Below, one piece after another: positions 10,822 to 59,853 of a stretch of DNA of 64,000 nt. The notes under the pieces are model-generated. The model saw nothing but the letters and a program-made list of their open reading frames with translations, was not told the origin of the DNA and made no database searches. The stretch lies in contig CALGYR010000006.1 in the NCBI GenBank assembly GCA_937935355.1, positions 5,608-69,607 of the forward strand, written 5' to 3'. Made by a program: the position numbers and the translations under genes. Positions within the stretch are counted from its first letter, which is position 1. Every line of letters starts with the position of its first letter. Origin of the DNA: an uncultured bacterium. GTDB taxonomy: Bacteria; Planctomycetota; SZUA-567; JAKLDR01.

Positions 10822-10911
10822 ATGTGCGGAAGCTGCGGCTGCAAGCCCAGGAAGAAGGCGGCCAAAAAGGCCGTCAAGAAGACCGCCAAGAAGGGCAAAA
10901 AGAAGAAGTAA
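10822..10911 (+). CDS. Candidate 29-aa Cys-x2-Cys-x-Cys / poly-Lys peptide (MCGSCGCKPRKKAAKKAVKKTAKKGKKKK)
   Basis: ATG 10822 is 7 nt after AGGAGG (10809-10814). GC3 is ~90% in this frame versus clearly lower in the overlapping 67-aa track ORF 10824..11027. No homolog recalled. Confidence 0.35.
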   Translation: MCGSCGCKPRKKAAKKAVKKTAKKGKKKK

Positions 10912-10993: not shown

Positions 10994-11086
10994 GCCACAG
11001 ATGCACACAGATAAACGCAGATCTTGAGCCTGGGATTGAGGCCGTCTGTCGGCCCCAATCTGTGTGCATCTGTGTTCATCTGTGGC
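10994..11086. repeat. CACAGATG decamer-repeat locus 1 (inverted pair of 10-bp-phased direct repeats) abutting the LarA-like RBS
   Basis: 10994-11023 GCCACAGATGCACACAGATAAACGCAGATC; 11058-11086 ATCTGTGTGCATCTGTGTTCATCTGTGGC in opposite orientation. Confidence 0.6.
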
Positions 11087-48420: not shown

Positions 48421-48503
48421 GTGCGTTCCCGCCTCTTTCCCAGCTCCGGCTCCAGCCCCCGGACCCCAGACCCGAGCCCCGAGACCCGAGACCCTTCTCG
48501 CCG

Positions 48504-50528
48504 CTACTTCTCGTACGCCTCCAGCTCCGCCAGCCCCGGGCCGAAGGAGTCCTGGCGGGCGGTCTCGTAGCGCTCGACTTCCAGGACCAGTCTGCGCGCC
48601 CTGGCCGGCGGGAAGGCGACGTCCAGCGTCCGGAACATGTCCGGCGCTCGGACCGAGCCCTCCGCCAGCGTGGTCGCGGTTCCGGAGGCATCGAAGGCCA
48701 GCAGCCGGTACTGGGTGATCGGCCGCTCCGACGTCCCCAGGAAGCGGACCCGTCCGACCGCGAGCTCCTTTCCGAAGTCGACGGCGAAGCGCCCGCCGGG
48801 GCCGGCCGAGAGGACCGTGGCGGTCCCGGGCTGGCCGTCGGCGAAGCTGCCGGCCAGGTTGCCGCCGACCTCGGGGGCGAGCGGTTCGGCCGCGACCTTG
48901 CCGCCGCCCTCCCTGGCAAGCGCCGCGGCCACCAGGCCGGCGGGCGCGGCGCCATCGAGGGCCAGCAGCGCCGTTCGGGCGGCGGAGAGCGCTTCGAGCT
49001 CGCCCTCGAGCTCCGGCTGCCGGCCGGCCCCGTCGCGGAAGCCGTAGGCGTCGTCGGGGTCCAGGTCGAAGAGCCGCGGCTCCTTCCGGCGGTTGTAGTC
49101 CCAGGCGAGCTTGATGACTTCGAGCAGCAGCCCGTGCTTCTCCCGCGGGTCGGCGGCGGCCCCGGCCCGTTTCGCGAGCCGCGCCGCGCCGGCCACGGAT
49201 TGATAGTGGTCGAGCACCGCCCGGTGGTGCAGGGCGATGCGCTTCCTGGGCGGCGTGTTGGCCGGGGACTTGGTCCGGGCGGCGCGGAACCGGTCGGCCA
49301 GCGCCTTCCACTTACCGCAGGTGGTGTCGCTGGCGAGCGGATCGGGAGAGGCCAGTTCCGCGTCCATGGCCTCGAGCCCCAGGAAGTATCCGGCGATTTC
49401 GTCGCCGGCCTCGCCGCCGCCGTAGTAGAGCCGGCAGTAGTCCCTGACGAAGCCCTCGACCGGCTGCGGCCCCTTCCAGGCCGAGAGCGCGAAGTAGTCC
49501 GCGGCGATGCTGAACTCGTCGAGGAAGAAGCGCCGGGGGGAGCAGTCCATGCTGATATAGGCTGGCCTGTCGGAGGCAAGGAACTGGAAGGCCTGGATGT
49601 CGCCGAGCGGCCCTCGAGGTCCCGAAAAAGGCGTGCCCAGACACTTGATGGCCGAACTCGCGATCGACTGTTCGAGGGCGCTGGCCTGGACCCCGGGAAG
49701 CTTCTCGGTCGTCTTCTTTCGAGCCTCGGCCACTTTGACGGCGGCCTCCTCCGGCTTCTCGTCGCCCTTGAGGCCGGCCTGTGCTCGCCACCATGCATCG
49801 GGCGCGGTCAGTTCCAGCTCCAGCCCGCGGCGCAGGACCTCACGGGCTGCGGCCGAGGTCGAGCCGATGCCGGCTCGGTCCACCCGGACCACCAGCCGGT
49901 TAAGGCCGTTGGCGGCCATCCAGTCGAGGTAGCGCGGGGCCACCGCCCCGAGCGAGTCGGTCACCAGAGCCCTTATCGCGTGGACCGGGGCGTCCTTGAT
50001 CGGCTCCCGCGGCCAGGCGGTCTTCGCGTCCATCGGCACTTCGCCGAGGTCGTGCAGCGAGCAGAAGCGCCAGCCGCGCTCACGCAACAGCCGGGCCGCG
50101 GCGTAGACCACCGCCCGGGGGCTCGCGCCGGCCAGCACCGTCGCGCCGCCGTCGGTGGTTATCAGGAAGCCTTCGGGATTGGGCTGATCCTTCTGCCCCG
50201 GCAGGACTGGCAGGTCGGCCTTGAACTTGGCCAGCGCCGGGTTCGAGTCCGGAGTGCCCATGATGATAGCCGCCGCGTCGCCGGCGGCCGGGGCCGAGGC
50301 GCCCACCGCTGCCTCCGCGCCCAGGTCGCGGCGCAGCCGCTCGGCCAGGAACTCGGCGGCGTACTTCTCGGGATCGGTGGCCTTCTCGCCCAGGGCGATG
50401 ACGAAGCGCGGCCGGGCCGGCGGCTCCTTCCGGGCCGGCTCTCCGCTCATCGCTCGCGCGCTCAGGCACAACAAGAGCCCGGCGGCGGCCAGCGCCGCCC
50501 CGGACCTGACATTCGGTTTCATCGCCAA
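48504..50528 (-). CDS. Secreted glycoside-hydrolase-like protein with C-terminal discoidin (F5/8 type C) domain
   Basis: Signal peptide 'AALAAAGLLLCLSARAMSGEP'. N-terminal alpha/beta domain resembling GH20b/GH67-N ('IIMGTPDSNPALAKF...GFLITTDGGATVLAGASPRAVVYAAARLLRERGW'). C-terminus '...RVRFLG...YRLLAFDASG...GPGLAELEAYEK' is discoidin-like. Confidence 0.6.
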   Translation of the reverse strand: MAMKPNVRSGAALAAAGLLLCLSARAMSGEPARKEPPARPRFVIALGEKATDPEKYAAEFLAERLRRDLGAEAAVGASAPAAGDAAAIIMGTPDSNPALAKFKADLPVLPGQKDQPNPEGFLITTDGGATVLAGASPRAVVYAAARLLRERGWRFCSLHDLGEVPMDAKTAWPREPIKDAPVHAIRALVTDSLGAVAPRYLDWMAANGLNRLVVRVDRAGIGSTSAAAREVLRRGLELELTAPDAWWRAQAGLKGDEKPEEAAVKVAEARKKTTEKLPGVQASALEQSIASSAIKCLGTPFSGPRGPLGDIQAFQFLASDRPAYISMDCSPRRFFLDEFSIAADYFALSAWKGPQPVEGFVRDYCRLYYGGGEAGDEIAGYFLGLEAMDAELASPDPLASDTTCGKWKALADRFRAARTKSPANTPPRKRIALHHRAVLDHYQSVAGAARLAKRAGAAADPREKHGLLLEVIKLAWDYNRRKEPRLFDLDPDDAYGFRDGAGRQPELEGELEALSAARTALLALDGAAPAGLVAAALAREGGGKVAAEPLAPEVGGNLAGSFADGQPGTATVLSAGPGGRFAVDFGKELAVGRVRFLGTSERPITQYRLLAFDASGTATTLAEGSVRAPDMFRTLDVAFPPARARRLVLEVERYETARQDSFGPGLAELEAYEK

Positions 50529-50613: not shown

Positions 50614-50790
50614 CTTTCACCACGAAGTCACGAAGACACGAAGAAGTCACCGAGAACGACATGGGATGTCGTGCGCGGCCATGGCCCCGGGAGTCCGGGC
50701 GTTATCGCCGCGGATTTCGAACCATCGCCGTTCTTCGTGTCTTCTTCGTGCCTTGGTGGCTTTGTGGTTCGTATGCCACGAATCGGAGAG
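50614..50790. repeat. Palindromic CACGAAG-repeat element, copy B (~45-bp inverted arms around a ~70-bp spacer containing CGACATgggATGTCG)
   Basis: Left 'CACCACGAAGTCACGAAGACACGAAGAAGTCAC' (50618-50650); right 'TTCTTCGTGTCTTCTTCGTGCCTTGGTGG' (50741-50769) is its reverse complement. Sits in the divergent promoter region between the 48504 gene and the DJ-1 gene. Confidence 0.5.
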
Positions 50791-50877: not shown

Positions 50878-51402
50878 ATGAAGGCTCTGATACTGGCCGC
50901 CGACGGATTCGAGGACAGCGAGTTGCTCGTGCCCATGTACCGCCTGAAGGAGGAGGGCTTCGAGGTGGACGTGGCCACGCCCACCGGGAGCAGGATCACC
51001 GGCAAGCACGGCTACGAGGTGCCGGGCACGGCCGACCTGTCCCAGGTCCGTCCCGACGAGTACGACCTGCTGGTCATCCCCGGCGGGCGCGCCCCGGAGA
51101 CCGTGCGTCTCGAGGAACAGGCCGTGGCCGCGACCCGCGCGATGATCGACAAGAACAAGATCGTCTGCGTCATCTGCCACGGCGCCCAGGTGCTGGTTTC
51201 CGCCGGCGCGGTCAAGGGCCGGAAGCTCACCTGCTGGATGGGCATCCGCGACGACGTCAAGGCCGCCGGCGGAGAGTTCCGCGACGAGGAGGTGGTGGTC
51301 GACCGCAACCTGGTCACCAGCCGCTTCCCCGGGGACCTGCCGGCCTTCTGCCGCGAGATGATGAAGCTGGTCCGGCAGCGGAAGCTTTCTCCCAACCGAT
51401 GA
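50878..51402 (+). CDS. DJ-1/PfpI family protein (intracellular protease/glyoxalase-like)
   Basis: 'MKALILAADGFEDSELLVP...YDLLVIPGG...KIVCVICHGAQVL' with the nucleophile-elbow Cys-His typical of PfpI/DJ-1. Confidence 0.85.
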   Translation: MKALILAADGFEDSELLVPMYRLKEEGFEVDVATPTGSRITGKHGYEVPGTADLSQVRPDEYDLLVIPGGRAPETVRLEEQAVAATRAMIDKNKIVCVICHGAQVLVSAGAVKGRKLTCWMGIRDDVKAAGGEFRDEEVVVDRNLVTSRFPGDLPAFCREMMKLVRQRKLSPNR

Positions 51403-51433: not shown

Positions 51434-52240
51434 CTACGGCTTCCCTGCCGGGGCGCTTCCGTCTGCCGGCTTGCCGGCCATCGAGGCCGGGGCATCAGCA
51501 CTCCGCCTGATGGCTCCCGCGGCTCCCAGGAGGGCCGCGGCGAGAAGATAGCCGGAGAGATATCGCCAGGCGGAGGGCACGGCCATCGGGTAGTCCGTCC
51601 CCACCCAGTGTTCGTAGAACCACGGCGAGGAGTGCGGCACGTACTCCCAGCCGACCGGCCGCGACGCCCCGACGAGCGTGTAGGCGGCAGCCAGGGGCGG
51701 CGAGCGCAGCCCCATCGAGATCAGCCGGTCGCGCGCGGCCGGCCGTCCCTCCGCGGACAAAGCCTTGATGGCCGTCAAGGAGTAGAGCGGCAGGAGCAGG
51801 AAGGCGAGGATCAGCGTGGCGGCAAGTCCCGCCGCGGCGCGCGGCCGGCGCGTCAGTCGCGTCAGCGCCAGCGTCAGCCCGGCGGAGGCGAGCCCCGCGC
51901 CGGCGGCCGCCAGCTTGGCGAGCAGCACGCCGCCGAGCGCTCCCCGGTCGAGCCCCGTGGCCAGCACCAGTTCTCCGGGCAGCGGGGCCACGAAAACCCA
52001 TCCGACCGGCGCGGCGACGGCCAGGGCCGCGCGCCAGAAACCCCCGCGCGCCGCGCTCCCGGCGGCGAAGAGCGGCGCCAGACAGGCGGCCAGCGCCTCC
52101 GCGATCACCGCGAAGGTCAGGACCTTCCGAGCTCTAACGGTAGCGTCGCCGCCGGTCGCGGCCGTCAGGATAAGGAGCAGACCGGCCGCGGCGGCTGCCG
52201 AGGCGAGCAGTACCGGCGCTCGGCGGGCGGCGGGGGTCAC
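51434..52240 (-). CDS. Hypothetical integral membrane protein (~6 TM, 268 aa), last gene of the MlaF-like operon
   Basis: GTG start at compl. 52238-52240 overlaps the lipoprotein stop (GTGA). Hydrophobic Ala/Leu-rich segments 'VLLASAAAAAGLLLILTAATGG', 'LTFAVIAEALAACLAPLFAAG', 'LAATLILAFLLLPLYSLTAI'. Its size is similar to MlaE-type permeases, but no motif was verified. Confidence 0.45.
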   Translation of the reverse strand: MTPAARRAPVLLASAAAAAGLLLILTAATGGDATVRARKVLTFAVIAEALAACLAPLFAAGSAARGGFWRAALAVAAPVGWVFVAPLPGELVLATGLDRGALGGVLLAKLAAAGAGLASAGLTLALTRLTRRPRAAAGLAATLILAFLLLPLYSLTAIKALSAEGRPAARDRLISMGLRSPPLAAAYTLVGASRPVGWEYVPHSSPWFYEHWVGTDYPMAVPSAWRYLSGYLLAAALLGAAGAIRRSADAPASMAGKPADGSAPAGKP

Positions 52241-54285
52241 TGGGGCTCCAGCCGGGATTCGGGGGTTGGGGACTGGGGGCCAGGGGCAGGCGACGAGGTG
52301 GAGGGCGCGGCCTCTTCCGTTCCCGTTCCCCGCCCCTCGTCCCCCGCCCCCGGCATCACGGGCAGCAACTCCCGGAAGGCCGACGAGCCCCACACCGGGG
52401 CCGGCGGCATGGACACGGGATCCCGGCTCGGCGCGGCCACGACCGGCGAGGGCAGTTCGTCCCAGCCCTCGGGCTTGCGTCCGATGGGAATCCAGAGGAT
52501 GCGCACGCGCCTGGCCTGCGCGCGCCGCTCGTAGCCGAAGAGGCCGCCGAGGATGCGGAAGCGCCTGGCGCTCTCCCCCGCGGTCTGGCGGGTCTCCCCG
52601 GGCGGAGGGGCGGCCGCCGGGCCGCCCGTCGAGCCGCGCCGCGAGTAGTCGAATAGCGGGAAGAAGCGCACGTTCCTGCCCTCCGGCGTGCGCACGTGCT
52701 TGAAGAGGTTGAAGAGCGCGTGGTCGCGCAGCGTGCCGTCGGCGAAGCACTCGTGGCGGTAGAGCGTGAAGAATGGGCCGTAGACCCGGTCGAAGGCCAG
52801 CCGGTTGCGGAACCACCAGGGCTCCAGGGTCGTGAAGAACCTCTCGCCGCTCGGCCCGCGGTCATAGCGGAAGAGCGGCCAGAAGAGCGCGTTCACGTCG
52901 CTCCTCATGTCCCCGGGGTCGATCGGGCGTTCGGCGCGGCCGGGCGGCTCCGGATAGGCGCCGGGTTCCCGGATGGCCGCGAGCCTCCGGCGCTCGGGGG
53001 GCAGCGGCGGCAGGACCCGCACCCGCCGCCCGTCGAGCGTCTTCTCCACCCACTCCCGGCGCACGTAGCGGAAAACGAACGCCGAGGTCACCGTGGTCAC
53101 GCGCATGGGCGGCTCGTCGCCCGTCTCCCGGATGTAGAACGGCCAGAGCACCTGGCGACTCTCCCCGTAGGCGCCCACCCGGTGGCCGTAGAACGGGAAG
53201 ATCTTGAAGCCGTGGACGCTCTCTCCCGTGATCCAGGATACGAAGGGCCATGGCGCGTGCCACTCGACGAACTCGTTGTTCTTGTGCCAGGCGTGCTTGC
53301 GGCCGAAGAGCGGCCAGAGCACGCTGTAGTAACTGATCTGGTCGCCACGGTAGCTCATCCAGAACGGGAAGAAGACCCAGGTCTCGGAGGGGTGCGGCGT
53401 GTCCAGGGCCAGCTGCCAGTGGTGGAAGAAGGGCCAGAGCGCGAAGACCCGGCGGTAGCGCCCGTCGCGCGCGTCGATCCCGTAGAGCGGCCAGACCCGC
53501 CAGCCGCGAACGTCGGGTCCGCGCCACACGCCGAAGACCGGCCAGAGCACGTTCCACGAATGGTAGAACTCGCTCTGGTAGTCCACCCATAGCGGGAAGG
53601 CCGCGAAGCGGATCCACCTGGTCCCGAGCTTGCCCTTGAGCAGTCCGGCGACCGGGAAGACCGCGAAGTAACTCCCGCGGGCGGTGTCGGAGCCGCCCCA
53701 CAGCACGGGCATGACCGCCCAGTCGGTCTTCGCGGCCGGCTCTCCGCCGGAGCGGTCGACGCGCTTGTCCCACCAGACGATCGGGAAGACGTGCAGGCGG
53801 TTCGACTCGCCGTTGCGCGTGGCCCACACGATGGGCCAGAGCGCGCGGAAGTCCCAGCGGATCGAGCCCGGGCCCTCGTCCTCGAGATAGCCGAGCGGTC
53901 GGACGATGGTCACGCGGTTGCCCGGCTGCGACCACCCCGTGGCCAGGGGCAGCAGCGCCCCCCAGTCGAGCCGGCCGGCGGGCGTCTCCTGCCAGAAGAA
54001 GAACGGCCCGGATCCCTCGCTGAGCCCCCGGGCAGCCGCGGCCTGTGCCGCCTCTTCGGCCGGTGGCGCCGGGCGGAGGGCCGCGGCCCGGAGCGGCTCG
54101 TTGCGCTCCGGAACCTTCGGCCGGCCGCATCCCGCAACGGACGCCAGCAGCAAGCCACAGATGCACACAGATGCACACAGATGCCGAATACCGCCTGGAA
54201 CGACCGGAGACCGGCTCCGCCTGCTCCGGCCATCTTCGCAAATCCGGAACCCGGAACCCGGAACCCGGAACATCCCGTTATTCAT
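52237..54285 (-). CDS. Lipoprotein with ~20 short aromatic 'WP(L/F/I)(F/Y/W)' repeats (682 aa), translationally coupled to the MlaF-like ATPase
   Basis: ATG 54285 overlaps the ATPase stop (ATGAATAA). Lipobox 'LLLASVAGC'. Repeats 'FPIVWW', 'MPVLWG', 'WPVFGVW', 'WPLYG', 'WPFFHHW', 'FPFWMSY', 'WPLFGRK', 'WPFVSW', 'FPFYGH', 'WPFYIRE', 'FWPLFRYD'. The 5' end contains (CCGGAAC)x4 and CACAGATGCA x3 repeats. Confidence 0.6.
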   Translation of the reverse strand: MNNGMFRVPGSGFRICEDGRSRRSRSPVVPGGIRHLCASVCICGLLLASVAGCGRPKVPERNEPLRAAALRPAPPAEEAAQAAAARGLSEGSGPFFFWQETPAGRLDWGALLPLATGWSQPGNRVTIVRPLGYLEDEGPGSIRWDFRALWPIVWATRNGESNRLHVFPIVWWDKRVDRSGGEPAAKTDWAVMPVLWGGSDTARGSYFAVFPVAGLLKGKLGTRWIRFAAFPLWVDYQSEFYHSWNVLWPVFGVWRGPDVRGWRVWPLYGIDARDGRYRRVFALWPFFHHWQLALDTPHPSETWVFFPFWMSYRGDQISYYSVLWPLFGRKHAWHKNNEFVEWHAPWPFVSWITGESVHGFKIFPFYGHRVGAYGESRQVLWPFYIRETGDEPPMRVTTVTSAFVFRYVRREWVEKTLDGRRVRVLPPLPPERRRLAAIREPGAYPEPPGRAERPIDPGDMRSDVNALFWPLFRYDRGPSGERFFTTLEPWWFRNRLAFDRVYGPFFTLYRHECFADGTLRDHALFNLFKHVRTPEGRNVRFFPLFDYSRRGSTGGPAAAPPPGETRQTAGESARRFRILGGLFGYERRAQARRVRILWIPIGRKPEGWDELPSPVVAAPSRDPVSMPPAPVWGSSAFRELLPVMPGAGDEGRGTGTEEAAPSTSSPAPGPQSPTPESRLEPQ
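54154..54185. repeat. CACAGATG decamer-repeat locus 3 (GCCACAGATGCACACAGATGCACACAGATGCC)
   Basis: Three exact 10-bp-phased copies; lies within codons ~34-43 of the lipoprotein gene. Confidence 0.6.
54244..54271. repeat. (CCGGAAC)x4 heptanucleotide tandem repeat inside the 5' end of the lipoprotein CDS
   Basis: ccggaac|ccggaac|ccggaac|ccggaac exact; encodes 'FRVPGSGFR' (codons 6-14 on the minus strand). Confidence 0.7.
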
Positions 54286-55033
54286 CCGTCAGCGGCCCGG
54301 TGGTGTGGCCTTCGAGGAACTGGCGGACGGCGGGATCGCGCGTATTGCGCATCTCCTCGACGGTGCCCTCGGCGATGATCTTGCCGCGGAAGAGCATGGC
54401 CGCGCGGTCGGCCACCCGGAAGACGGTGTGGATGTCGTGGGTGATGATGATGGAGGTTGCTCCGGTCTTCTCGCGCATCTCGCCGGCCAGGTCCACGGTG
54501 GCGTTGGCCATGATCGGGTCCAGGCCGGCGGTGGGCTCGTCGTAGAGTATGACCCGCGGCTCGCGCACCAGCGCCCGGGCCAGCCCCACGCGCTTCCTCA
54601 TGCCGCCGGAGAGGTCGGCGGGCATGTAGTCTTCGAAGCCCTCGAGGTGGACCAGTCCCAGCTTTTCCTCCGCGATCTCGCGGATGCGCTCCTTGGGCAG
54701 CTTGGTATGCTCGGCGAGCGGCAGGCCCACGTTTTCCGCGACGGTCAGGCTGTTGAGCAGCGCCGCGCCCTGGAAGACCAGGCCGATGGACTCGCGGATC
54801 CTGCCGAGTTCCCTGCGCCGGGCCTTGACCACCGAACGGCCCTCGACGAGCACGTCGCCCTTGTCGGGCCGCATCAGCCCCACGATGTGCTTGATGAGCG
54901 TGGACTTGCCCACGCCGGAGGGGCCCACCACCGCGAGGATCTGCCCGGCCTCGACGGAAAGGCTAACGTCGTCGAGGACCTGGCGGGTCCCGAGCCTCTT
55001 GGAGACGTGGACGATCTCGATTGCAGCGGCCAA
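54278..55033 (-). CDS. MlaF/Ttg2A-like ABC transporter ATP-binding protein
   Basis: Walker A 'GPSGVGKST', 'LSGGMRKRVGLARALVREPRVILYDEPTAGLDPI', C-terminal 'RNTRDPAVRQFLEG' as in MlaF. TTG start at 55033 is 8 nt after GGGAG. Confidence 0.85.
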   Translation of the reverse strand: MAAAIEIVHVSKRLGTRQVLDDVSLSVEAGQILAVVGPSGVGKSTLIKHIVGLMRPDKGDVLVEGRSVVKARRRELGRIRESIGLVFQGAALLNSLTVAENVGLPLAEHTKLPKERIREIAEEKLGLVHLEGFEDYMPADLSGGMRKRVGLARALVREPRVILYDEPTAGLDPIMANATVDLAGEMREKTGATSIIITHDIHTVFRVADRAAMLFRGKIIAEGTVEEMRNTRDPAVRQFLEGHTTGPLTDE

Positions 55034-55132
55034 GCGAATCGCTCCCGGCTGTTCCGAAGGGAAGGTTAGCCGGGGGCGGTGCGGGAGTCAAGTGGCCCTG
55101 CCGGGCCATCCGGTTGCCACAGTCCGAGCCGG

Positions 55133-56038
55133 TCAGGACACGCCTTCCGCTGCCGGATCCTTGTCCGGAGCGGATGGCGGGGCGGTGGTCTTGGGAAGCT
55201 GGCGCTGTCCGCCGCGCGTCGGGTCCCAGGTGAGCCCCTGCGGCTCGGACTTGTCGGGCTCGGTCAGCCGCAGACAGACCCCCCAGCCGCCGGCGAACTG
55301 GGCCACCTTGACGAGGATGTCGTTCCATCCCGGCTCCAGGGTCACCTCCACGGCGTCCTGATCGGGAGTGACCCCGCGGGCGGTCGGGTTGGTATGGACG
55401 ACCTTGCCGTTGACGCGCACCTGGACGTGGTCGTCGCTGCCCAGCAGCAGGCGCAGCCTTCTCGGTTCGTCGCCGTCGACCCGCACCGAGGCCAGCGTGT
55501 AGGCCACCGCATATTCGCGGTGTCCGAAGACCGCGTCGAAGTCCACGGCCCCGCGCGCCCCCGGCTTGAATGGGCGGACCCAGCGGGCCTCGGCGTCCGA
55601 GGCCTTGTAGGCGGCCTCGACGCGGACCTCGCCGTCCGGAGGCAGAGCGAGGTCCAACGGCTTGACTTCCTTCCGGTCGAACGGAAAAGGACCGCAGAAG
55701 AAGAGGTCCTTGATAAGCCGGCGTTCGCCGATTTCCCTGCGGGCATTGGCCCGGACGGCGTCGACCAGGGCGGATGCGCGCGTGGCGACCTCGACGTCCT
55801 TGCTCTTGAGCGCCGCCTCCACCAGGGGCAGTGCGGCCTCCCCCATGGTGGCCAGCTCCTTGCTGGCGGCATCGCGCTTGTGCCAGTCGTCATCCCCCAG
55901 TTGAGCCACCAGGAGGCGGGCGCGGGCCGCGTCCGGGTCCCCGGCGACGCCTTCGCCGACGGACTCGGCGGCGCCGCCCGCCCCGGCCAGAAGCAGTGTG
56001 AAGATCGCTGCGCCCAGGGTCACGGACGGTCTCTGCAC
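55133..56038 (-). CDS. Secreted protein with HEAT-like N-terminus and beta-sandwich C-terminal domain
   Basis: GTG 56038 after GAGGGGG; signal peptide 'VTLGAAIFTLLLAGAGGAAES'. 'WHKRDAASKELATMGEAALPLVEAALKSKDVEVATRA' HEAT-like. C-terminal 'LRLLLGSDDHVQVRVNGKVV...GWNDILVKVAQFAGGWGVCLRL' jelly-roll-like. Confidence 0.55.
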   Translation of the reverse strand: MQRPSVTLGAAIFTLLLAGAGGAAESVGEGVAGDPDAARARLLVAQLGDDDWHKRDAASKELATMGEAALPLVEAALKSKDVEVATRASALVDAVRANARREIGERRLIKDLFFCGPFPFDRKEVKPLDLALPPDGEVRVEAAYKASDAEARWVRPFKPGARGAVDFDAVFGHREYAVAYTLASVRVDGDEPRRLRLLLGSDDHVQVRVNGKVVHTNPTARGVTPDQDAVEVTLEPGWNDILVKVAQFAGGWGVCLRLTEPDKSEPQGLTWDPTRGGQRQLPKTTAPPSAPDKDPAAEGVS

Positions 56039-57070: not shown

Positions 57071-57164
57071 GGACGCGGGGACATGGGGACACGGTGACGC
57101 GGTGACACGGTGACACGGTGACACGGGGACGCGGTGACACGGGGACAGGGGGACGCGGAGACAG
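57071..57164. repeat. Tandem array of ~11 octamers GG(G/T)GAC(A/G)N
   Basis: ggggacat|ggggacac|ggtgacgc|ggtgacac|ggtgacac|ggtgacac|ggggacgc|ggtgacac|ggggacag|ggggacgc|ggagacag; the 8-bp period is incompatible with coding. Confidence 0.7.
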
Positions 57165-57398: not shown

Positions 57399-57550
57399 GT
57401 CCCCGCGTCTCCGCGTCTCCGCGTCCCCGCGTCCCCGCGTCCCCGTGTCCCCATGCCCCCTTGTCCCCTTGTCCCCGTGTCCCCGTGTCACCATGTCCCC
57501 GTGTCACCATGTCCCCGCGTCCCCCCGTCGCCGCGTAACCGCGTCATCCC
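57399..57550. repeat. Tandem array of ~19 octamers GTCCCCGY, the reverse complement of the 57071 array
   Basis: gtccccgc|gtctccgc|gtctccgc|gtccccgc|gtccccgc|gtccccgt|gtccccat|gccccctt|gtcccctt|gtccccgt|gtccccgt|gtcaccat|gtccccgt|gtcaccat|gtccccgc... The two arrays flank a 230-bp lower-GC segment containing the unit palindrome GTCCCCTCACGGGGAC (57297-57312). Confidence 0.7.
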
Positions 57551-59440: not shown

Positions 59441-59824
59441 CCTTCTTCAGTGTGCCCCCTGCACGCTGCGCCCGGGGCTAAGCAACGGCGGGGCCAAAGA
59501 CGGGGTGGACGGCTGCCTGCGCTAAGGCGCCCAAATGCGCCACTTGTCAATACGCGGGCATCTTCCCGGGCGGCTCATGTCCTGATGTGGATTCCCACAC
59601 CAGCCGACGTTCGTCGGGGACAACAACGGTTTGGGGGGAAGCTATCAGCCGCGGATGAACGCCGACAAACGCGGACGGGCTCTTCACCGCAGAGGACGCT
59701 GAGGCGCGCAGAGGACGGCCATTGCCTGCATGAGCCGGAGCGCGGCGGAGTACGTTGCGTATTCGAAAGCCCCAGCCGCGAACCGGAGGACGCCTCCGCG
59801 CCCCCTCTGGTGGAATCCTCGTAT

Positions 59825-59853
59825 CCGTGTCCATCTGTGTCCATCTGTGGCTG
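59825..59853. repeat. CACAGATG decamer-repeat locus 4 (CCGTGTCCATCTGTGTCCATCTGTGGCTG) ~130 nt upstream of tyrS
   Basis: Reverse complement GCCACAGATGGACACAGATGGACAC; same motif family. Confidence 0.55.

Follow-up and report, generated by a model that had tools for sequence, protein, structure and literature searches.

A four-unit heptamer array in the signal-peptide region of a planctomycetal lipoprotein gene: switch or tolerated in-frame insert?

Does a heptanucleotide repeat within the first codons of a lipoprotein gene act as a phase-variation switch, or is it merely carried along by the reading frame? This question is raised by a stretch of 64,000 nucleotides from an uncultured bacterium of the Planctomycetota (GenBank assembly GCA_937935355.1, contig CALGYR010000006.1, positions 5,608 to 69,607; hereafter referred to as the window; G+C content 68.8%). 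An exact CCGGAAC repeat spans positions 54244-54271 of the window, with a period of 7, 4.0 copies and 100% matches according to Tandem Repeats Finder (TRF); both its coordinates and its composition had been given correctly in a preliminary description of this DNA. On the coding (minus) strand the tract reads (GTTCCGG)x4. The 14-mer CCGGAACCCGGAAC, i.e. the doubled unit, occurs in the window only within this tract, and at least three matches to it were obtained in none of 100 dinucleotide shuffles. The tract lies at the 5' end of a lipoprotein gene whose predicted start codon overlaps the stop codon of a gene for an MlaF-like ABC transporter ATPase, and it had been put forward as a candidate switch for the lipoprotein and for the membrane protein encoded downstream. 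Based on a comparison of orthologous loci, we hold with moderate confidence that the tract is an old short-tandem-repeat insert, in frame and tolerated in the n-region of a cleaved signal peptide, and not an on/off switch.

Translation of the heptamer tract

Within the open reading frame (ORF) 52237..54285 on the minus strand, the array begins at base 3 of codon 5 and finishes with the last base of codon 14, in agreement with its earlier placement among the first 15 codons. On this strand the junction of the two genes reads ...CTG ACG GAT GAA TAA cgggATGTTCCGGGTTCCGGGTTCCGGGTTCCGGattt..., in which the TAA at 54280-54278 is the ATPase stop. The elements of the junction are as follows:

54244..54271, minus strand: (GTTCCGG)x4 heptamer array, codons 5-14 (..FRVPGSGFR..), in the predicted signal-peptide n-region (TRF, sequence, orthologous four-unit arrays)
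54283..54285, minus strand: ATG predicted to start the lipoprotein gene; it shares bases with the stop of the ATPase gene (ATGAATAA), and this ATG at −5 is kept in L012, L002, L003, L004, L010 and L011
54271-54273, minus strand: second in-frame ATG, which is ACG in L012
54127..54285, minus strand: predicted 52-codon signal peptide plus lipobox Cys codon (54129-54127)
54156..54184, minus strand: decamer array (GCATCTGTGT)x2.9, which encodes the transition from n- to h-region (HLCASVCICG) in this signal peptide (TRF)

Orthologous loci (numbered L) were gathered from metagenome-assembled genomes (MAGs) of Planctomycetota and from metagenomes, the searches of genome and of metagenome contigs yielding three and six loci, respectively. 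For each locus, we recorded how far the lipobox Cys codon lies from the ATPase stop, the remainder of this distance modulo 3 and the start codon:

Window: stop-to-Cys distance 151 nt, 1 mod 3, ATG at −5
L012: 106 nt, 1 mod 3, ATG at −5
L002: 100 nt, 1 mod 3, ATG at −5
L003: 142 nt, 1 mod 3, ATG at −5
L004 = L007 = L008: 124 nt, 1 mod 3, ATG at −5
L010: 154 nt, 1 mod 3, ATG at −5
L005/L006: 58 nt, 1 mod 3, GTG at −20
L013: 114 nt, 0 mod 3, GTG at +6; the frame of the −5 ATG is closed by a TGA

In L011 the ATG at −5 is likewise in frame. Hereby, all nine lineages show a start codon at the ATPase stop that is in frame with the lipobox Cys across spacers of 58-154 nt, and none of the tabulated loci contains an in-frame stop between start and Cys codon. 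Because the orthologues were found via the conserved mature domain, the sample is not biased toward open frames. The predicted coupling of stop and start takes the form of an ATG at −5 in seven lineages, of a GTG at −20 in L005/L006 and of a GTG at +6 in L013, where the new GTG would compensate for the frame change. Moreover, every lineage has retained GAT as the Asp codon that gives rise to the ATG, although GAT accounts for only 9% of Asp codons when eight genes of the window are counted.

A different start is given in public data, as the 100% identical gene P0001 (GCA_036768975.1) is annotated from the GTG of V40 (54166-54168), 39 codons downstream of the coupled ATG and within the (GCATCTGTGT)x2.9 decamer array. 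If the lipoprotein indeed started at this GTG (54168), the heptamer would be situated in an untranslated spacer between the genes, like other leader arrays. Base composition is consistent with such a spacer: the G+C content at third codon positions (GC3) of the window gene is 0.65 in the signal-peptide part, which is noncoding-like and matches the local G+C content, versus 0.94 in the mature part. Likewise, GC3 from start to Cys codon amounts to 0.63-0.78 in the repeat-bearing lineages versus 0.92-0.97 in the mature part, and to 0.92 in the repeat-free signal peptide of L006. The signal-peptide extension is thus intergenic-like in base composition although it is held in frame. In addition, other copies of the decamer element, as well as a heptamer array of a similar type, are noncoding elsewhere in the window.

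Against an untranslated spacer, however, stands the open frame itself, which is kept in nine lineages despite their differing spacer lengths and with a compensating start in L013, as well as the rare GAT codon that preserves the ATG. A start at V40 would furthermore yield MCICGLLLASVAG|C, i.e. a signal peptide of only 13 residues with an uncharged n-region, while L002 and L003 possess no canonical internal start that leaves a usable signal peptide, and the homologues P0002, P0003, P0005 and P0006 are all annotated from the coupled start. We therefore regard the spacer explanation as very improbable. Because the frame is conserved across lineages, GAT is retained and V40 would yield a poor signal peptide, the tract appears to be translated from the ATG coupled to the ATPase stop. 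This ATG is probably the true start and the public GTG V40 start probably wrong, i.e. too short, which sustains the earlier proposal of a coding tract and a coupled lipoprotein start.

Copy number and unit sequence in related lineages

Among the relatives the array takes the following forms:

Window: GTTCCGG x4
L012 (flanks ~95% nucleotide identity): GTTCCGG GGTCCTG GGTCCGG GTTCCGG, imperfect
L002: GTTCCTG x4.4, perfect
L003: as L002, split by an in-frame 42-nt hairpin-like insert (L003 3034-3075)
L004/L007/L008: GTTGCGG x4.6, perfect
L013: GTTGCTG GTTGGTG GTTGCGG GTTGCTG, imperfect

Position and codon register are shared by all of these heptamer-bearing loci, each of which carries four units and is in frame. 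In a neighbour-joining tree of the mature domain the heptamer-bearing lineages are monophyletic; their sister, P0006/L010, contains the decamer and lacks the heptamer, and the more distant L005/L006 have a plain signal peptide of 26 residues. As judged from this tree, the heptamer array seems to have arisen once, its four units having been held through ~30% protein divergence. L004, L007 and L008 are 100% identical. L017 from the ENA and the NCBI MAG (L015/L017) share 99.99% identity over 10,243 nt with zero gaps and identical tracts; since the NCBI and ENA assemblies are very close and possibly stem from the same reads, the gap-free alignment of long 8-mer arrays within these 10.2 kb carries little information on repeat mutability. 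In L011, two hexamer arrays in inverted orientation to each other, (CGTACK)n ... (GAGTAC)n, are found in frame at the same n-region site (~2266-2350).

The unit sequence, by contrast to the unit number, varies between lineages. Position 4 of the unit is C in the window, L012 and L002 and G in L004 and L013, while position 6 is G in the window and L004 and T in L002. The decamer unit behaves similarly, being GCATCTGTGT in the window versus TCATCGGCGT in L002, with 7 of 10 bases identical and every copy changed together. As all four heptamer units change in concert between lineages, independent point mutation is excluded, and the arrays must have been homogenised several times, either by cycles of slippage or by conversion. 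The tract thus appears mutable over evolutionary time, with selection apparently returning the array to its in-frame four-unit state.

A rival reading is a genuine contingency locus, in which slipped-strand mispairing in (GTTCCGG)4 would turn both the lipoprotein and the membrane protein coupled to it ON and OFF at high frequency, the assemblies showing a dominant ON state. Simulated alleles are ON with 1, 4 or 7 units and OFF with all other copy numbers, the latter leaving nonsense ORFs of 122-483 aa, so that the gain or loss of one 7-bp unit would frameshift the lipoprotein just as had been predicted. The unit is non-triplet, the tract is perfect and lies in the first 15 codons of a region read as translated, concerted unit evolution implies that the array does slip or convert, and four units exceed the permissive candidate threshold of at least three units used for heptamers in H. 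influenzae (PMC2651432). With neuO (PMC13001214) there is also a precedent for heptamer repeats in the 5' part of a coding region.

Nevertheless, no copy-number differences were found among the heptamer-bearing relatives (six distinct versions and several assemblies, all of them consensus assemblies), and no OFF allele occurs among the nine lineages, each of which is in frame from its start at the ATPase stop. For neuO, by contrast, 3-53 copies and 65.6% OFF alleles were counted in 64 genomes (PMC13001214). Three of the six array versions are imperfect (L012, L013) or interrupted (L003) with the frame intact; hence, selection seems to keep frame and length, not slipperiness or purity, and mutability as such is apparently not preserved. 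In addition, four units make a short, low-rate tract, and many similar arrays of the window are noncoding. The outcome that the preliminary description had named as refuting, a uniform four-copy tract in all reads and relatives, is what the relatives show. A tract that is uniformly four units long in every heptamer-bearing version, without ON/OFF variation and with a perfect array in three of the six versions, does not support the proposed phase-variation switch, which we consider quite unlikely.

The genes that would be affected are the following:

52237..54285, minus strand: lipoprotein gene, 682 aa when read from the coupled ATG; its product, predicted to be all-beta with repeated hairpins, belongs to an uncharacterised family of Planctomycetota
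54278..55033, minus strand: MlaF-like ABC transporter ATPase gene, 251 aa, upstream coupling partner (Pfam ABC_tran, 1e-34)
51434..52240, minus strand: polytopic membrane protein gene, 268 aa, with a 4-nt overlap (GTGA) between its GTG start and the stop of the lipoprotein gene

The lipoprotein gene is always located between the genes for the MlaF-like ATPase and the 268-aa membrane protein. For the ATPase the best NCBIfam match is MlaF with 219.6 bits, which is under the model cutoff of 441, and neither the lipoprotein nor the 268-aa membrane protein matches a Pfam or NCBIfam family. The lipobox reads LLLASVAG|C, with its Cys codon at 54129-54127, and none of 15 homologues deviates from it at G52 or C53. 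The predicted Sec/SPII signal peptide comprises an n-region charged by R7, R14, R20, R22, R23, R25 and R34 and the h-region LCASVCICGLLLASV, which AlphaFold2 models as a helix (residues 36-50). A signal peptide of the twin-arginine translocation (Tat) type was rejected on inspection, as the RR motifs are not conserved across lineages. In the AlphaFold2 model (41 homologues; mean predicted local distance difference test score, pLDDT, 79.9) residues 1-36 are disordered, and the core consists of ~50 short beta-strands, mostly with pLDDT >90, with recurring 'W-P' motifs; a Foldseek search of this model against the PDB returned no match with a template modelling (TM) score >0.15. Surface exposure of the lipoprotein is only putative, which further weakens the rationale for a contingency locus.

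Repeats are also present at the 3' end of the lipoprotein gene, namely (GGCGGGG)-like units at 52324-52351 of the window, with G-quadruplex (G4) motifs on both strands, and (GGGTTCA)x4.3 followed by inverted (CGAACCC)x3 inside the C-terminal tail of L002 (1950-2007). On the other side of the ATPase gene, L012 (~95% nucleotide identity; 950-1024) is devoid of a 301-aa HEAT-like gene that the genome of the window (L001 1036-2060) carries between the Exo_endo_phos and ATPase genes.

Surrounding arrays and a possible cis-acting role

The constant copy number of the array could reflect a function of the repeat itself. The window is rich in related elements. With a period of 5-11, at least 2.5 copies and a TRF score of at least 40, nine non-triplet arrays were counted versus 0.31 ± 0.58 expected (maximum 3; 100 dinucleotide shuffles). 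Eight of the nine are found at gene boundaries, i.e. in intergenic leaders or at ORF ends. Arrays and copies of a dispersed decamer are listed here:

48452-48494, minus strand: (GGTCTSG)x6 heptamer array in a noncoding 5' leader that extends from stop 48504 to ATG 48419 of a signal-peptide protein; the array is itself a canonical sense-strand G4 motif
50621-50644 and 50731-50754: inverted arrays (CACGAAGA)x3 and (TTCTTCGTGCC)x2.2 (8-/11-mer), divergent intergenic region between gene 48504-50528 (minus strand) and a DJ-1/PfpI gene 50878-51402 (plus strand)
57071-57163 and 57399-57545: 8-mer arrays (GGGGACAC)x11.6 and inverted (GCGGGGAC)x18.4, divergent intergenic region between Exo_endo_phos and GFO_IDH_MocA oxidoreductase genes
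54156-54184, minus strand: decamer copy in the lipoprotein signal-peptide coding region
11055-11086, plus strand: decamer copy 20 nt upstream of ATG 11104 of a 409-aa ORF
10994-11022: inverted decamer partner, forming a long hairpin with the copy at 11055-11086
59823-59851, plus strand: decamer copy 133 nt upstream of tyrS

Each of the two arrays at 50621-50644 and 50731-50754 is sense-oriented toward its own neighbouring gene. In the pair at 57071-57163 and 57399-57545, each array has its C-rich, A-poor strand in sense orientation to the gene next to it and a G4 motif on the template strand. Across the window, nine arrays are situated 5' of a gene, and in every one of them the A-poor (T/C/G-rich) strand corresponds to the sense strand of that gene. 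Such a polarity points to a role at the RNA level or to a mutational bias linked to transcription. The loci of the relatives, including L018 and L011, contain 7-9-nt arrays at gene boundaries as well.

The decamer whose dispersal is at issue is CATCTGTG. As a three-unit element (ATCTGTGTGC ATCTGTGTNC ATCTGTGGCT, ending CATCTGTGGCT) it occurs four times in 64 kb and looks like a dispersed, sense-oriented leader element. Homologous decamers of two to three units are present in L002, L003, L004, L010 and L012; a second copy of the species-specific decamer of L003 was not found in 12 kb of the same contig (L018), which is too little to judge dispersal. Just 5' of the decamer hairpin, a small ORF (10825-10911, plus strand) preceded by an AGGAGG-like site encodes MCGSCGCKPRKKAAKKAVKKTAKKGKKKK, with a Cys-rich head and a Lys-rich tail.

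Against this background about four units might be needed at the re-initiation site as an RNA or DNA G-quadruplex or as a protein-binding platform that tunes translation of the lipoprotein versus the ATPase, the decamer array representing a second such site. Copy number and position are conserved while the unit sequence varies and a GGTT core is kept, which would fit such a role, as would the A-poor sense strand of the nine 5'-side arrays and the sense orientation of the three-unit decamer ending CATCTGTGGCT 5' of two unrelated genes. TAACTGA heptamers located just 5' of start codons have, moreover, been proposed as sites for post-transcriptional regulators (PMC4679880). Finally, the sense strand of the window tract itself matches the canonical pattern G3N4-7 x4, and the second ATG falls within this motif:

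54250..54276, minus strand (mRNA-sense): canonical G-quadruplex motif GGGATGTTCCGGGTTCCGGGTTCCGGG, made up of the repeat junctions plus the upstream GGG (regex scan)

The RNA of the tract that carries this motif is GGGAUGUUCCGGGUUCCGGGUUCCGGG. Canonical G4 motifs number 13 in the 64 kb on both strands according to the same type of scan.

The G4 motif is present in the window, L012 and L004, whereas its G3 runs are missing in L002 and L003, and mostly in L013, where only GG runs are found. In the minimum free energy (MFE) structure of the heptamer region calculated with ViennaRNA (gquad option) hairpins are preferred and the G4 is not chosen. Folding of 111-nt segments around the start in six lineages revealed no shared RNA fold, with z-scores of −0.52 to +0.45 in four lineages, −2.41 in L010 and −3.00 in L013, those of five of the six lineages counting as ordinary, and Rfam gave 0 hits for the whole window at the gathering threshold. 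Genome-wide, the array units differ too much from one another to be recognised by a single sequence-specific factor, and the units have decayed in L012 and L013. A role of the four units at the re-initiation site consequently seems unlikely to us. The same holds for its widest form, in which the module of four 7-nt and about three 10-nt units would be a functional cis element with selected copy number and spacing and a unit evolving in concert, as part of an undescribed genome-wide system of sense-strand A-poor repeat leaders; we assign it an equally low probability.

Scans for other signals gave neither a sigma-70 promoter nor an intrinsic terminator in 53800-55300, and no GGA sites of the CsrA type on the sense strand. 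A slippery heptamer for −1 frameshifting was discarded on inspection, since GGGUUCC mismatches X XXY YYZ.

A probable tolerated in-frame insert and its relation to known repeat systems

The favoured reading, i.e. an old insert tolerated in the cleaved n-region, can be put as a sequence of events. Translation of the lipoprotein would occur by re-initiation at the ATG overlapping the stop of the MlaF-like ATPase gene, as suggested by comparative frame conservation. In the ancestor of the subclade, a short signal peptide (~26 aa, as in L005/L006) may have been lengthened by the 10-mer and later by the 7-mer array, in the order implied by the tree. As seen in the window, these arrays are part of a population of 7-11-nt tandem repeats that occupies gene boundaries genome-wide. 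The n-region, which would be cleaved off by signal peptidase II, presumably tolerates nearly any sequence, so that selection would act on frame and rough length only. Selection of this kind would account for the noncoding-like composition, for indels in multiples of three and for the four units found even in decayed arrays. Occasional homogenisation of units by slippage or conversion would shift the unit sequence in concert between lineages, and a slip by plus or minus one unit would create a lipoprotein null allele, probably polar on the coupled membrane protein, that is removed by selection and not used as a switch. In line with an insert, such repeats are typical of gene boundaries, the (GGTCTSG)x6 array is plainly noncoding, and L011 contains a different in-frame repeat pair at the same site.

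Four points weigh against this reading. Few lineages are at hand and these only as consensus assemblies, in which minority alleles within populations are invisible. Homogenisation of the units via single-unit steps would require frameshifted intermediates in the past. The presence of four units everywhere, never 1 or 7, is more uniform than expected for a neutral in-frame passenger and hints at selection on copy number. Lastly, the public annotation of P0001 begins 3' of the tract.

With the tract regarded as an insert, it is a fresh example of how a simple sequence repeat of 5-11 nt can be taken up into the end of an ORF, and its copy number, fixed at four, is the unusual and unexplained feature. 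Exactly four units, in frame over ~30% protein divergence and with repeated homogenisation, represent a clean natural example of concerted evolution under frame constraint. A practical consequence is a correction of the published gene start, as the GTG at V40 is probably wrong. The unusual load of 7-11-nt arrays at gene starts of this lineage, with one strand polarity, may point to an unrecognised leader function or to a strand-specific mutational process. A real switch would extend contingency loci to free-living high-GC Planctomycetota, but the comparative data argue against it.

With respect to gene arrangement, the locus resembles coupled ABC-transporter operons of the ATGA/TAATG type: the predicted start overlaps the upstream stop (ATGAATAA), which is kept in relatives, and the next gene overlaps by GTGA. 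To our knowledge, a tandem repeat directly after the re-initiation codon has not been described for overlapping stop/start junctions of ABC transporters.

Among phase-variable heptamers, the closest counterpart is neuO, the O-acetyltransferase gene of E. coli K1 (CUS-3 prophage) and the best-known case of a heptamer in 5' coding sequence, in which (AAGACTC)n varies in number to the extent that minority lengths of 2-5% are seen within single cultures (PMC13001214). As in neuO, a 7-nt tandem unit is located in the 5' end of the ORF and a full-length product is obtained only at frame-keeping copy numbers. Unlike in neuO, four copies, all ON, are present in every heptamer lineage, some arrays have decayed, and the repeats reside in a signal peptide predicted to be cleaved, whereas those of neuO stay in the mature enzyme. 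The 7-bp promoter repeats of hmw1A/hmw2A in Haemophilus influenzae, which can modulate expression, lie ~100 bp upstream in 13-38 strain-variable copies (PMC2651432). Here, too, heptamer tandem repeats are tied to the gene of a cell-envelope protein, but the tract of the window reads as coding and is invariant in number.

Heptamers of the cyanobacterial short tandemly repeated repetitive (STRR) type were reportedly described by Mazel et al. in 1990. Certain genomes contain large numbers of 5-11-nt repeats, heptamers being the commonest, and the ends of ORFs tolerate them (PMC4679880, in a summary of Mrazek 2007); genomes rich in these repeats have been described already (PMC6749651). TAACTGA heptamer direct repeats are found near start codons in Beggiatoaceae and cyanobacteria and are occasionally absorbed into ORF ends (MacGregor 2015, PMC4679880). 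With these long simple sequence repeat (LSSR), TAACTGA and STRR systems the window shares a genome-wide type of excess, namely short arrays (2-6 copies) of the 7-nt class at gene starts and boundaries. While those systems rely on one or few fixed units, nearly every array here has its own unit, except for the dispersed decamer. In further contrast to them, the heptamer tract is in frame, lies 3' of the predicted start codon and is orthologously conserved over ~30% protein divergence.

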